A stretch of DNA of 64,000 bases, from the NCBI RefSeq assembly GCF_030013205.1, contig NZ_CP122648.1; one strand, written 5' to 3'. The notes under the pieces were generated by a model. That model did no database searches. It had not been told where the DNA came from and saw only the letters and a list, made by a program, of their open reading frames with translations. This DNA comes from Escherichia coli. GTDB lineage: Bacteria; Pseudomonadota; Gammaproteobacteria; Enterobacterales; Enterobacteriaceae. The position numbers and the translations under genes were made by a program. Below are positions 32,978 to 40,379 of the stretch, piece after piece (the stretch's first letter is position 1; each line of letters begins with the position of its first letter).

Positions 32978-33005
32978 ACTTGGTGCCGAAGGCCGGACTC
33001 GAACC
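32978..33005. repeat. 28-bp direct repeat of the tRNA-Leu 3' end (att-site remnant), identical to 40292-40319
   Basis: ACTTGGTGCCGAAGGCCGGACTCGAACC occurs at 32978-33005 and 40292-40319; flanking bases differ on both sides. Confidence 0.85.
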
Positions 33006-33484
33006 TAAGTCTCTATAACCTGCTGTAATCACGTTCCTGTTAGCTGTTAAGAGAGCAATCGTAGGACCTTTTTGTTCTAGGGGCTACATATTAAGTTTGA
33101 TCCGCTGGACGGAATCAAACCGAGTGTTCGTGGCGGCATAAAACATCAACGTGCCATACCTGCCTTTTAATGTTTCTGGAGGTCTGCCGAGTCGGGAGGA
33201 AAGAACATTTGTCAGCTATGTGGACGTTGAATAAACGCCACTGCGTTCGGATTTTGAAACCAGTTAGACCCCGGCAGACCTTGTTCAGAATAACTATTTA
33301 ACTCAATGTTATTTATATGAATTAAGCCATTAAGAGCCAAAGCGAAACGCCACCGTAACGCACCCGCATTTTGCTGTTTTATTCACTCTTATAGAAACAA
33401 AGGGCTGATGAAACATAAGACTATCAGCATCTAATGAATACTGTTCATCCATACAGCATAAAAATTCATAAACTTACACTTGAG

Positions 33485-33949
33485 CTACTTTCTCAGTTTG
33501 TCCCACCGAACCGCTGATACGATACCCCAGTTGCCGCTAGGATTAGGCCTACGCCATTTTGCTGTCTCCATGCTACGAAGATACTCAAGAGCTTCAGCAA
33601 ACGTGCCAAAACGCTTCTGAGCCGCTTTATCACCTACGCCAAACGAACCATCACGGGTGCTCGCCAAACCGGGGTGAAAACAGGAACCATCGGCTGCGTA
33701 TGGAACCAACAGTTCCGAGTCGTTATCTTCAGATGGGCCAGGCGCTAACAACTGCCACGGCTCAACGCTCAGAGCGTTAGCCAGCACCTCAATCGCATCC
33801 AGAGACGCATTAGAGCCACCACGTTCAATTCTGCTCATATAACTACGTGCAAACCCGCACCGATCGGCAAAGGCCTCTTGGCTCAATCCGGTGGCAATGC
33901 GCAGTTCTTTTACCCGCTCGCCAAACTGTATTCTCAGGGATTTTTTCAT
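33485..33949 (-). CDS. XRE-family HTH transcriptional regulator with unknown C-terminal domain (154 aa)
   Basis: ATG at 33949 gives MKKSLRIQFGERVKELRIATGLSQEAFADRCGFARSYMSRIERGGSNASLDAIEVLANALSVEPWQLL (Cro/C1-type HTH) followed by about 90 unassigned residues. Confidence 0.75.
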   Translation of the reverse strand: MKKSLRIQFGERVKELRIATGLSQEAFADRCGFARSYMSRIERGGSNASLDAIEVLANALSVEPWQLLAPGPSEDNDSELLVPYAADGSCFHPGLASTRDGSFGVGDKAAQKRFGTFAEALEYLRSMETAKWRRPNPSGNWGIVSAVRWDKLRK

Positions 33950-34189
33950 GCACTGAATGTGCAATTTTGACCACTGTAAGGCCACGCTCCATATGAGATA
34001 TTTTGAATCCAATCTCACTTCAGCGAGCTTAGTCACTAGCATTCATCGGCTGTATCATGACAATCCTTTTTGATTCAAAACAAACACCAATGGTGACATT
34101 TAAAACCCAACAAGTATGATGATCATCATCGGTTGGGCGTCACCAGCGTTCGCTATCAGGCGCGATGTGGTTTGGAAAGTGAGGGAATC

Positions 34190-34684
34190 ATGACGGGAGC
34201 AGACTTTTTATTACCGATTGCAGCGGGAGCCGCGATTAGCTGGGCCAGTTATAGTGTAGTTGCCCATGCTGTATCAAAGCAGCACATCAGCACGCTACGC
34301 GCAACTGTATGGGGTGCTCTGGGCACTCTCTCATTGGTGCTGGGCGTATGCGCCTTTTCTGCTGTAGGTGCTGAGCATCAGACAGCACGAAAAGATATCG
34401 TATGTGCAGATGACAACCCGGAATGCTATGCGAAAACGCACCATAACCCGGTCAGGGAGTGCAAAAAGGTAATGGATGAGAAAGCGAAGTTTCGCCATGT
34501 GTGGCAAGAAAGCGAAGCGCCTGTATTTAATACTTATCTCTGGCACGATGAGAACGCGAAGATTATTCAGGCATTTGGGCAACAAGCTAAGGTAGTTAAC
34601 AGCCTGGGGATGCTAGCTCCGCTTCAATACTTTTGTGTTTTCAACGCAAAAACAGGAGAAGTCATTGCGGCCTCTTTCGAATAA
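34190..34684 (+). CDS. Hypothetical membrane protein (164 aa; two N-terminal TM helices, Cys-containing C-terminal domain)
   Basis: ATG at 34190 with RBS GAGGGA; MTGADFLLPIAAGAAISWASYSVVAHAV...VWGALGTLSLVLGVCAFSAVGA... then soluble domain; divergent from the XRE gene. Confidence 0.6.
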   Translation: MTGADFLLPIAAGAAISWASYSVVAHAVSKQHISTLRATVWGALGTLSLVLGVCAFSAVGAEHQTARKDIVCADDNPECYAKTHHNPVRECKKVMDEKAKFRHVWQESEAPVFNTYLWHDENAKIIQAFGQQAKVVNSLGMLAPLQYFCVFNAKTGEVIAASFE

Positions 34685-37828: not shown

Positions 37829-38161
37829 TTGAGAACCGTCGAGATACTGCAATACACCTTACGCAAAGGCAGCGGTGCCGCTTTTCACGCCATTATGCAG
37901 GAAATCAGTGTTCCCCTACACCAACGCCACGGGATCGATGTTGTTTCGTTTGGTAACTCTCTGCATGACCCGGACTGCTATTACCTGATTCGCGCCTTTG
38001 TCAGCCCTAAAAGCATGACTACGGTTCTCGACGCTTTTTACGCAAGCGATGACTGGCGCAGCGGCCCGCGCGAAGACATCATTGGCAACATAGAGGCCAG
38101 CATTAAAACAGTGATAAATCTACCATCAGAAAGCGTAGAAGGGCTGCGGGTGCAATCGTAG
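37829..38161 (+). CDS. NIPSNAP/Dabb-like small protein (110 aa, TTG start inferred)
   Basis: ...VEILQYTLRKGSGAAFHAIMQEISVPLHQRHGIDVVSFGNSLHDPDCYYLIRAFVS... resembles NIPSNAP-type ~100-aa proteins; no in-frame ATG upstream. Confidence 0.45.
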   Translation: MRTVEILQYTLRKGSGAAFHAIMQEISVPLHQRHGIDVVSFGNSLHDPDCYYLIRAFVSPKSMTTVLDAFYASDDWRSGPREDIIGNIEASIKTVINLPSESVEGLRVQS

Positions 38162-38293
38162 GTCATCAAGTTTCACCAAACGTGTTTTGAGCGTCTCCAA
38201 ATTCAGCACTATGAAATCCACCACCCTTAATAAAAAACGCGCCAGGAAGCGTCCCAGCGCATTCAAGCATCACTCAACTGAATAGTAACTGAT

Positions 38294-40204
38294 TCAACCT
38301 GTTTGTTTGCCACGCTTTCTTCGCAACGCATCTCTGACAGCATCCAGCCCGTCAGGAATGTTGAATTCCGCTATATCAGGTAACGAAAAATCAATTTTCT
38401 CCACGACTTCAATCATATGAATTGGTTTGAGGTCTTTGCTATATCGCACTTCCGTTTCAGTTTCGCCGCGCACATGCCCAAGTAGCTGCGCTCGTAATTC
38501 TGAGCTAACGCCCTTCTCCTTGAGCAAAGTCGAAACTGAGTGGCGAAAAGAATGGAAAGATTTGCTTCTGTTCCTCTCGAGTTTCAACCGCCCCGCAAGC
38601 AACGATTCATTGAACCATGCGGAAACTGGCCTACCATAGCCTTTTGTTTTATGTGGTTTAAGCTCCGGGAAGAGACGGGTATACCCTGCATCTTTTAAGG
38701 CGTTCACGTAGTCGATGAAACCGAGACTAATCAGCTTTGAATGGAGCGGAATCTTGCGGCGAGCATTAGCATTTTTGAGTTTCTTTCCGCTTTCATTATC
38801 GCTTTCAAGGTTCAAATAATAGACGCCGTCGTCTGCCAGAACATCACTCAGCAGTAACTGAGCGATTTCATTAACTCGCGCCCCCGTCATCAAGCCCAGC
38901 AAAGGTGCCCAATAGTTAAACGGGCAATATTGATGGAATCGCCCTTGCGCATTGCGTTCAACAGTTCCAGCCTCAAACCACGGTAACGAAAAAATCGCTT
39001 TAATTTCATGCGGTTCAAATATGTCAGTGTGATCCTGATCTCGCTCATCTTTATCATCGGATGGAAAAAAGTTTTCGCATGGCGATTTCAGTAGCTTACC
39101 GTCAGCAACAGCCCACTTCATTGCACCATAAATGCCGTTGATATACTTCCTAACGGATTCCTCAGTCATCAATTTATCGCCGCATTCTGCCGCTTTGGCG
39201 ATTAACTGATCCAGCGTTTTCACTCCATATTTAGCTTTGACTAAATTACGGTTTGCTGGGATCGTGCGCAGTTTGCTCTCATAAGCCCGGAGGAAATCGC
39301 GATCAAAATCTTCCAACTGAATGTCACCCATCGCTTCGATCATAAAGCTGAAATAGTTACGGATATCACTTATAGCCGACTCCGATACCTTGCCCTTGCG
39401 CCGATGCTTTAGATATTCAGAGCATAACCACGACAGATTCTTAGTGTAATACTTTCGATTAACATACTCGTTATCGATAGTAGGGGCAGGAGCGGCAAGA
39501 GGCACGGTAGGATGAACACTAGCGACTGGAGGCGTGGTCTTAGCCAGCCAATCAAGCCTTAGGCTTTCTGCATGGACTTTATTGATCAAAAGCGTATCGG
39601 GTTTAATTACCGGCCAACCGGAGGTGAAAAACCAACCGCCTTTAGCGTCGCTTCCGGCAGTTTTGAACACCGAAGCTTCTGAATAACCGTCGCTAATAAT
39701 GTTACGTAAATGTGCTGGTTGCGCAGTGAGTTGCAGATAGCCTTTAGCAACCCCCTCGATACCCTTCTCTTCGCCATAATTAAGAACGTAACTGCCATCA
39801 AGCGGGTCTAGCTCAGCCTCAGAGAGCGCTGCAACATAAAAGCCAGCCTGCCCCGTCGCCAGCCAGAATACGGGCAGATTACGGTTCATCACCGCCTGTA
39901 TTAATTGCGCAACAGGCAACTCAACTGACTGAGCAAAGTTAGAAAGCGAGATCATACCCTCACCAGCAAGCAGCGGGGCGCAGTCACTTAAAGTTCGATA
40001 ATCCAATTGTTCATACTCTTGTAAGGTCTGATACCAGACCGCCAACAGGAGCGCGGACTTCTGCTTTGCTTCATGAAGATCGTGAGTGCCTGTTGAAGTG
40101 TGAATCTCACACTGTCCTGCGTATCGACGAAAACGTTGGGGAATGCTAATGCGGACAACATAAATGCCGCTGGTTCGACGATAGAGTTTATATCGCTGAG
40201 ACAT
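38294..40204 (-). CDS. Large tyrosine recombinase / integrase (636 aa from first ATG; 650 aa from TTG at 40246)
   Basis: C-terminal catalytic region ...GARVNEIAQLLLSDV...HSFRHSVSTLL...LLGH...EVRYSKD (R, H-x-x-R, H, Y); start adjacent to the 3' end of tRNA-Leu, same orientation. Confidence 0.85.
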   Translation of the reverse strand: MSQRYKLYRRTSGIYVVRISIPQRFRRYAGQCEIHTSTGTHDLHEAKQKSALLLAVWYQTLQEYEQLDYRTLSDCAPLLAGEGMISLSNFAQSVELPVAQLIQAVMNRNLPVFWLATGQAGFYVAALSEAELDPLDGSYVLNYGEEKGIEGVAKGYLQLTAQPAHLRNIISDGYSEASVFKTAGSDAKGGWFFTSGWPVIKPDTLLINKVHAESLRLDWLAKTTPPVASVHPTVPLAAPAPTIDNEYVNRKYYTKNLSWLCSEYLKHRRKGKVSESAISDIRNYFSFMIEAMGDIQLEDFDRDFLRAYESKLRTIPANRNLVKAKYGVKTLDQLIAKAAECGDKLMTEESVRKYINGIYGAMKWAVADGKLLKSPCENFFPSDDKDERDQDHTDIFEPHEIKAIFSLPWFEAGTVERNAQGRFHQYCPFNYWAPLLGLMTGARVNEIAQLLLSDVLADDGVYYLNLESDNESGKKLKNANARRKIPLHSKLISLGFIDYVNALKDAGYTRLFPELKPHKTKGYGRPVSAWFNESLLAGRLKLERNRSKSFHSFRHSVSTLLKEKGVSSELRAQLLGHVRGETETEVRYSKDLKPIHMIEVVEKIDFSLPDIAEFNIPDGLDAVRDALRRKRGKQTG

Positions 40205-40294
40205 CGCCTCGTATACCCTTTTGTAAGAGGGGCTACGCGATTTCAAGCAAAATTATGGATTAAATTGTTTTAAAACAACGACTTAGATAAGACT

Positions 40295-40379
40295 TGGTGC
40301 CGAAGGCCGGACTCGAACCGGCACGTATTTCTACGGTTGATTTTGAATCAACTGCGTCTACCGATTTCGCCACTTCGGC
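40295..40379 (-). tRNA. leuX: tRNA-Leu (CAA anticodon), leuX
   Basis: Reverse complement reads GCCGAAGTGGCGAAATCGGTAGACGCAGTTGATTCAAAATCAACCGTAGAAATACGTGCCGGTTCGAGTCCGGCCTTCGGCACCA with long variable arm and CCA end. Confidence 0.95.

Follow-up and report, generated by a model that had tools for sequence, protein, structure and literature searches.

We analysed a 64-kb stretch of Escherichia coli DNA (contig NZ_CP122648.1; hereafter the window) in which a 7,286-bp segment (positions 33006-40291) adjoins the tRNA gene leuX. The segment lies between two copies of a direct repeat, and its G+C content was 46.6%, as against 52-54% in the flanks. From leuX outward it carries a tyrosine integrase gene, a NIPSNAP gene, a 1-kb spacer, a DUF1643 pseudogene, and genes for a serine recombinase, a DUF4062 protein, a membrane protein and an XRE regulator. 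The chromosomal flank on the leuX side consists of ahr-yjgR-lptGF; beyond the other repeat lies an island with the fec operon and an AbiJ-type gene. The whole window matched E. coli O139:H1 W13-16, along with many further genomes, at 100% identity. The features that delimit the segment were the following.

32978-33005, no strand: distal direct repeat (displaced original leuX 3' end of 25 nt, plus 3 nt); exact 28/28 copy
38294-40204, minus strand: tyrosine integrase of 636 amino acids (aa) with an N-terminal DUF6538 domain; Pfam Phage_integrase and DUF6538, RefSeq site-specific integrase
40292-40319, no strand: proximal direct repeat, overlapping the reconstituted leuX 3' end; exact copy and tRNA overlap
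40295-40379, minus strand: intact leuX, tRNA-Leu(CAA), the integration target; ARAGORN, and Rfam tRNA with 59.4 bits

A first-pass annotation of the window had described a 28-bp direct repeat of the tRNA-Leu 3' end with differing flanking bases, and a tyrosine integrase gene starting 90 bp from the tRNA in the same orientation. Both observations held. The 28-mer ACTTGGTGCCGAAGGCCGGACTCGAACC occurred exactly twice in the window, without a third copy at up to three mismatches, and was not repeated in any of 100 dinucleotide-preserving shuffles of the window. It comprises the last 25 nt of leuX, including the CCA, and 3 nt past the tRNA end; the sequences outside the two copies were unrelated on the left and on the right. 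Because the repeat is exactly the 25-nt tRNA end in E. coli O157:H7 and in relatives from five other genera, the relevant homology is 25 nt, and the extra ACT found here is a coincidence of chromosomal and element sequence. At 33094-33121, 116 bp inward of the element's far end, there is a degenerate third copy, AGTTTGATCCGCTGGACGGAATCAAACC (19 of 28 positions); it resembles a remnant of a T-arm and acceptor stem but may be a chance similarity.

The integrase gene begins 90 nt downstream of leuX and is co-oriented with it; the position of its open reading frame (ORF) and the RefSeq annotation agree. Its product has the Pfam domains DUF6538 (residues 7-63, 7e-8) and Phage_integrase (residues 436-582, 5e-9). 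When 12 homologues with identities down to 24% were aligned, R443, K477, H551, R554 and Y588 were invariant and H577 was nearly so (at least 90%), so that the catalytic set R-K-H-R-H/W-Y of tyrosine recombinases is present. By BLASTP, it was not significantly similar to the P4-type integrase, for which leuX is a target as well, a sequence search of PDB gave no match, and DUF6538 did not appear in the searchable literature. A strong terminator-like site was predicted after the integrase gene, but none in the interval that separates it from leuX. Co-transcription of the integrase gene with leuX appears possible.

To define the empty site, we joined positions 32378-32977 (600 bp) to positions 40292-40891 (the proximal repeat and 572 bp to its right) and searched the product in 5,426 complete E. 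coli genomes. A single uninterrupted match with 99.9-100% identity was obtained in 219 of them, including E. coli C, S88, the type strain ATCC 11775 and CT02. In CT02, AbiJ-NTD4, debris of the insertion sequences (IS) IS30 and IS3, and fecIRABCDE lie directly against leuX, and a single copy of the 25-mer is present. The sequence that forms the distal repeat in the window is the genuine leuX 3' end in the empty-site genomes. At least 80% of the element was found in 347 complete E. coli genomes, and the junction of the AbiJ flank with the element, used as a query, in 285.

The first-pass annotation had taken 33006-40291 for a discrete site-specific insertion in front of the fec island, and had proposed comparing leuX loci across E. 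coli for its presence or absence. The comparison bears this out: the 219 exact empty sites retain the AbiJ/fec island against leuX. A repeat persisting in genomes that lack the segment, which had been named as an argument to the contrary, was not seen, CT02 holding one 25-mer copy. The segment therefore has the properties of a tRNA-targeting island, namely flanking copies of the tRNA 3' end in direct orientation, a complete tRNA gene next to the integrase and an exact empty site. Bounding by a tRNA 3'-end repeat and an intact tRNA were likewise found in five other genera.

Enterobacter, Cronobacter, Yersinia, Pectobacterium and Pantoea have homologues of the integrase with 60-96% identity. The suggestion to look for the same integrase at other tRNA-Leu sites proved fruitful: relatives occupy tRNA-Leu(CAA) in Enterobacter, Cronobacter, Pantoea and Yersinia, and share the architecture of DUF6538 integrase, serine recombinase and XRE regulator. 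In Enterobacter mori, Enterobacter kobei, Cronobacter turicensis and a Pantoea species, the integrase gene lies ~90 bp after tRNA-Leu(CAA), and a perfect 25-nt repeat closes a unit of 7.7-11 kb with a resolvase and an XRE regulator. The repeat in Yersinia enterocolitica is also perfect; it extends over 124 nt (locus L012, 9791-9914 and 20717-20840) and includes a whole second tRNA-Leu(CAA) gene, with two complete genes in place of a partial 25-nt copy. Beyond the distal repeat, a P4-type integrase gene follows in E. kobei, C. turicensis and Y. enterocolitica and, as a pseudogene, in O157:H7. The stacked arrangement therefore recurs in several hosts. A sibling of 9.7 kb with the same backbone is inserted at thrW, next to proA, in E. 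coli Z1323HEC0010 (locus L010, 3721-13430); a 43-nt repeat derived from the 3' end of tRNA-Thr(CGT) delimits it, and identity between the integrases is 45%.

Related elements at leuX adjoin at least seven different neighbours. The one in ECONIH5 lies next to a remnant of a type I R gene, and the one in 99COLEC is present without a fec island; in 02E060, the same AbiJ-flanked leuX site is taken by a P4-like satellite. Among metagenome contigs, the end of the element with its repeat was joined to 11 different upstream sequences in 19 contigs. These fall into ~7 types, including AbiJ, K-12 intB, Enterobacter and the integrase-proximal end of a P4-like satellite, and repeated site-specific integration is visible in these junction contexts, several of which are independent. 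The far-end sequence TAAGTCTCYATAACCTGCTGTAATCAC was kept in the E. coli variants and in the 19 contigs. The distal repeats themselves have decayed in places. That of ECONIH5 (locus L009, ~1785) has a 1-nt deletion by which one C was lost (TGGTGCGAAGG), the repeat at the satellite locus of 02E060 (L007, 14603-14627) is also one C short (TGGTGCGAAGG), and that of 99COLEC (L011, ~6950-7000) contains the 8-nt unit GGTGCGAA four times.

A rearranged derivative without the integrase was observed in a sequence type 648 (ST648) strain (locus L006, 10001-15624) and in JE86-ST02 (L004). Here, leuX is followed by ~460 bp of the AbiJ-side flank (32516-32977) and by 1.8 kb of novel DNA encoding a 304-aa protein. 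Next comes the element's left half, 32980-36296, at 99.2% identity, and after it the distal repeat and a P4-type integrase gene that is truncated. This mosaic cannot arise by simple integration or excision.

Taken together, these findings make it very probable that 33006-40291 is a discrete, non-autonomous 'integrase-only' genomic islet which entered leuX by site-specific recombination through its tyrosine recombinase. A circular form would carry an attachment site (attP) that includes the terminal 25 nt of tRNA-Leu(CAA). Recombination of attP with the tRNA 3' end would rebuild an intact leuX next to the integrase gene and leave the original 3' end as the distal repeat against the resident island, which here would be the decayed, integrase-less fec/AbiJ island. 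The islet consists of a conserved backbone (DUF6538 integrase, NIPSNAP, DUF1643, serine recombinase, XRE regulator) and variable cargo slots. Among the six proteins screened against NCBIfam, PADLOC and PHROGs, no relaxase, type IV secretion system (T4SS)/VirB or coupling protein, replication or packaging protein was recognised. Transfer from cell to cell therefore has to depend on something else, and could be brought about by a helper element, by transduction or by homologous recombination of the flanks.

The remaining features of the islet were the following.

33006-33484, no strand: ORF-free far end of the element; no ORF of at least 50 aa
33485-33949, minus strand: XRE-family helix-turn-helix (HTH) regulator, 154 aa; PADLOC control-protein/CapH-like, NCBIfam RstR/HipB-like and PHROG repressor matches
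34190-34684, plus strand: small membrane protein, cargo, 164 aa; RefSeq 'membrane protein', phrog_20749 (function unknown) with 1e-102
34745-35590, minus strand: DUF4062-domain protein, cargo, 281 aa, candidate defence gene; Pfam DUF4062 at residues 10-99, E = 3e-4
35604-36164, minus strand: small serine recombinase of the resolvase/DNA-invertase type, 186 aa; phrog_125 DNA invertase with 1e-55, NCBIfam Mpi-type invertase with 4e-28, below cutoff
36357-36823, plus strand: DUF1643 pseudogene, frameshifted; RefSeq 'frameshifted'
36824-37828, no strand: ORF-free 1-kb spacer; no annotation, no Rfam match
37829-38161, plus strand: NIPSNAP-family protein, 110 aa; RefSeq annotation
38235-38264, minus strand: terminator-like hairpin just 3' of the integrase gene; 13-bp stem and T run, consensus match only

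The XRE regulator is a backbone gene conserved in all relatives, and the resolvase gene was found in every one of them. The NIPSNAP gene is kept in the O157:H7, 99COLEC and thrW variants, and the DUF1643 gene is intact in O157:H7 and 99COLEC. The ORF-free far end may hold arm-type sites of the integrase. Of the two cargo genes, that for the DUF4062 protein encodes an N-terminal part of 160 aa which matched the PADLOC candidate PDC-S60 (6e-27) over only 169 of 906 profile positions; no full-length match of this copy's cargo to a validated anti-phage system was obtained with the PADLOC profiles. The cargo of relatives gave full-length matches to retron RT-TIR type XII (1e-181), to PDC-S06 AAA_13 in three genera, and to PDC-M18A/B.

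We also considered an invertible segment, as the two cargo genes, beside the invertase-like recombinase, lie between the arms of a 21-nt inverted repeat (34209/35596). This was rejected: the arms were neither conserved nor co-varying, one of them is coding, and a 10-nt seed is expected by chance. A plasmid origin of the module of recombinase, DUF1643 and HTH genes was likewise rejected, since the matches in plasmids were IS1-bracketed fragments that also hold a gene of the leuX island; the plasmid copies are secondary captures. In plasmid pYLMB10a (134 kb; locus L015, 5117-8406), such an IS1-bracketed piece of a related element encodes the membrane protein, the recombinase, DUF1643 and a 338-aa protein. 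It adjoins a phytase-like gene also known from the leuX island and lies near MobH/MobI(A/C) genes.

The DUF1643 pseudogene and the first ~500 nt of the spacer (~36300-37400) were 99-100% identical to the O157:H7 and 99COLEC variants, whereas neighbouring parts of the same elements differed by 5-29%; the two comparisons gave similar break points. None of the 595 E. coli genomes with the spacer has an annotation there, and the longest ORF of the spacer has at most 49 aa. Positions 36824-37828 gave no match in Rfam, the spacer gave none in plasmids, and the 561-nt spacer sequence gave none among 50,697 phage records. The ECONIH5, thrW and Enterobacter variants lack the part from 36856 to 37351. 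Fold z-scores of -2.9 and -3.5 were unremarkable. We asked whether the spacer is a decayed gene by a tblastn search with the three proteins that ECONIH5 encodes in its place, and found nothing. The conserved stretch could be explained either by a recombination patch or by a constrained non-coding function.

Is the islet still mobile? With an intact integrase ORF and two perfect repeats, it is possibly still excisable. The predicted junction of the circle (attP) is aaattgttttaaaacaacgacttagataagACTTGGTGCCGAAGGCCGGACTCGAACCtaagtctctataacctgctgtaatcacgtt, and the predicted restored site is ctaactaactgtattgtaaggaatttagtaACTTGGTGCCGAAGGCCGGACTCGAACCggcacgtatttctacggttgattttgaatc. Several observations weigh against a mobile islet with a defence function, or against repeated integration as the source of the E. 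coli copies. The attP junction was found 0 times in metagenome contigs and species-representative genomes, compared with 19 integrated far junctions, which counts for little because assemblies rarely capture circles. No excisionase or recombination directionality factor was recognised when the six proteins were compared with NCBIfam, PADLOC and PHROGs, small ORFs not having been scanned for Xis-type families. The DUF1643 gene is frameshifted in the window and the distal repeats of two variants have decayed, and both facts show that elements of this kind become fixed. At every locus inspected, the near-identical copy occurred only in the AbiJ context. Only a partial match to a candidate family speaks for a defence role of the cargo in this copy.

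The comparison with ATCC 25922 (locus L020) adds to these observations. From 22.8 to ~48 kb, the window differed from that strain by only 0-5 bases per kb, a near-identical block of at least 25 kb with the fec island, the element, leuX and ~8 kb of core (ahr-yjgR-lptGF-pepA). From ~49 kb (holC/valS), divergence jumped to 42 bases per kb (~4%), and this position is the boundary of a recombination import. The left island was shared with CT02, which has the empty site, at 99.84%, the right-hand core at only 98.9%. Because the block is near-identical to ATCC 25922 while the adjacent core differs by ~4%, a single integration may be the source of many among the 285 AbiJ-context copies, which would have spread by homologous recombination. 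Part of the spread of the element in E. coli, and much of its distribution there, is due to homologous recombination of a large block (at least 25 kb) and not to the action of the integrase.

These data raise the question whether all E. coli copies go back to one or a few ancient integrations, the element being now effectively immobile and its pattern resulting from block recombination and from RecA-type deletion between the 28-bp repeats. We give this a little less than an even chance: it accounts well for the near-identical block, for the differing flanks of CT02, for one junction in 285 genomes and for the lack of an attP junction in the assemblies and of a recognised excisionase. It leaves the origin of the element unexplained, and the ~7 junction contexts and the perfect 25-nt repeats across six genera require repeated site-specific integration; moreover, both repeats and the ORF of the integrase have been preserved intact in the window. 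We conclude that immobility within E. coli complements the explanation by site-specific entry of an islet and does not replace it. Very improbable, in contrast, is the idea that the 7.3 kb is the integrase-proximal module of one composite fec island with a relic repeat inside. The annotation of EDL933 treats the whole leuX region as O-island (OI)-172, as do several papers. However, the fec/AbiJ island is retained in the empty-site genomes although the module is missing there, the module occurs in 99COLEC although that strain lacks the fec island, its boundaries are unchanged in other genera, and the annotation of Sakai separates its counterpart, SpLE5 (PMC1890555).

Two further explanations concern the means of transfer. 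That the element is a degraded prophage or phage satellite, mobilised by packaging through a helper phage, is suggested by the label 'cryptic prophage-like element' for SpLE5 (PMC1890555) and by PHROG families matching integrase, invertase, regulator and membrane protein. In addition, P4-like satellites use leuX, and integrase-only islands may be uncharacterised satellites according to Hochhauser et al. (PMC10121019). We nevertheless consider it quite unlikely, since no match to capsid, terminase, primase, Psu/Delta/AlpA or cos-associated proteins was found in the screened proteins or in the annotations and precomputed Pfam matches of the relatives; the integrase is unrelated to the P4-type, and the 561-nt spacer sequence was unmatched in the phage records. 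Transfer as an integrative mobilisable element by a conjugative helper, via an unrecognised origin of transfer, is unlikely as well. The small size, an integrase and a recombinase as the only mobility genes, the occurrence in six Enterobacterales genera and a conserved ORF-free segment of 1 kb that could hold a cis-acting site are in keeping with it. Against it stand the absence of relaxase and T4SS/VirB components among the screened proteins, the IS1-bracketed nature of the plasmid copies, and the restriction of the conserved spacer to E. coli variants.

The island to the left of the distal repeat extends over ~22 kb and has no integrase gene. It contains AbiJ-NTD4, a hypothetical gene, fragments of IS30, IS3 and IS66, the fec operon, a phytase-like gene, DUF905, DUF932, antirestriction and JAB genes and an HNH gene, and it ends at a truncated nanS beside nanM-nanC-fimB. 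At this far end (~10977-15050), the truncated nanS gene (sialate O-acetylesterase) is accompanied by a DUF932 gene split by IS66, and the antirestriction and JAB genes are typical of CP4-like islands. Its description as the older neighbour is fair, given the missing integrase, the many IS fragments and the truncated nanS, and the islet probably arrived after the fec/AbiJ island. No distal repeat of the older island was detected in the window at up to three mismatches, nor was one found for K-12 KpLE2. The AbiJ-NTD4 gene (31623-32447, minus strand), directly left of the distal repeat, matched the PADLOC candidate PDC-S32 over its full length (6e-104), and the hypothetical gene beside it (30948-31574) matched phrog_11802; the older island, too, therefore ends in defence-type cargo. 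The equivalent region of S88 has been reviewed as PAI-S88-leuX (Fec, Ag43) (PMC7545054).

leuX is defence hotspot #37 of E. coli, and most of its occupants have an integrase or recombinase but no recognisable mobile element (PMC10121019, PMC12707154). The hotspot and the SpLE5 relative are thus already known, and the islet is an ordinary tRNA-targeted member of the SpLE5/'integrase-only' class. Our findings extend known biology rather than change it, and we attach modest weight to them: they delimit cleanly one unit bounded by attachment sites (att) within the leuX hotspot. Pan-genome studies name leuX as the most occupied defence locus of E. coli and leave unsaid how its contents move. One recurrent occupant is a small islet with integrase, recombinase and swappable cargo, which is found in six genera, stacks in front of older islands and is spread within E. 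coli also by homologous recombination of large blocks. The quality-control strain ATCC 25922 carries this exact copy, so that its activity and the function of its cargo are easy to examine. More speculatively, and with only a small chance of being right, the islets with DUF6538 integrases might form a distinct, unnamed, Enterobacterales-wide family of helper-dependent shuttles of defence genes, tRNA-proximal in stacked loci and with a sister lineage at thrW. Such a family would explain part of the occupancy of hotspot #37 with 'no detectable mobile element', and ~36.3-37.35 kb would be a cis-acting site or a non-coding RNA for regulation or mobilisation. An account at the family level (DUF6538 integrase, 25-nt core, tRNA-proximal stacking, swappable defence cargo, thrW lineage) was not found in the searchable literature.

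The closest named relative is SpLE5 of O157:H7 Sakai (S-loop 286; the leuX-proximal part of EDL933 O-island 172). We took the O157:H7 locus examined here to be SpLE5 by its position, its size (~10.2 kb with an IS) and the published description, not by locus tags. Like the islet, it targets the leuX 3' end with a 25-nt repeat, takes the tRNA-proximal position and is stacked before another island; its backbone has the same order (integrase, NIPSNAP, DUF1643, serine recombinase, cargo, XRE regulator). The integrases are 79% identical at the aa level, and shared DNA is arranged in collinear blocks of 83-100% identity. The two differ in the cargo between regulator and recombinase, which consists of two unrelated hypothetical genes in O157:H7 and of the membrane protein and DUF4062 protein genes here; in addition, O157:H7 has a DUF4160 gene that the islet lacks and, frequently, an inserted IS. 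The distal neighbours differ as well: a P4-type integrase pseudogene, a phosphorothioate-dependent restriction gene and Zorya II in O157:H7, AbiJ/fec here. The flank of the distal repeat in O157:H7 is exactly the leuX-intB junction of K-12, and K-12 is therefore the equivalent of the empty site for that insertion. SpLE5 (ECs5242-5252) is precisely missing from an O157:H7 strain of lineage II, and ECs5250 is required for colonisation of calves (PMC1890555).

The P4-type islands and satellites at leuX (K-12 KpLE2/intB, PAI II-536, the 02E060 satellite) resemble the islet in several ways: they insert at this tRNA 3' end and create a direct repeat, their integrase gene lies beside leuX and is co-oriented with it, and they stack in tandem. 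Their integrases, however, have the domains Arm-DNA-bind_3/Phage_int_M instead of DUF6538 and are unrelated in sequence by BLASTP, and their repeat is ~20 nt long instead of 25 nt. P4 primase-helicase, Psu, Delta and AlpA were absent from the islet by RefSeq annotation and among the screened proteins. The 'integrase-only' islands of Hochhauser et al. 2023 (PMC10121019) resemble the islet in the leuX locus, in the combination of integrase and recombinase without other mobility genes, in the presence in a subset of genomes and in the defence-type cargo that is found in relatives of our element. In that study, att-bounded units were not delimited and the integrase family was not named. The copy in the window differs from those islands in that no complete known defence system was detected in it.

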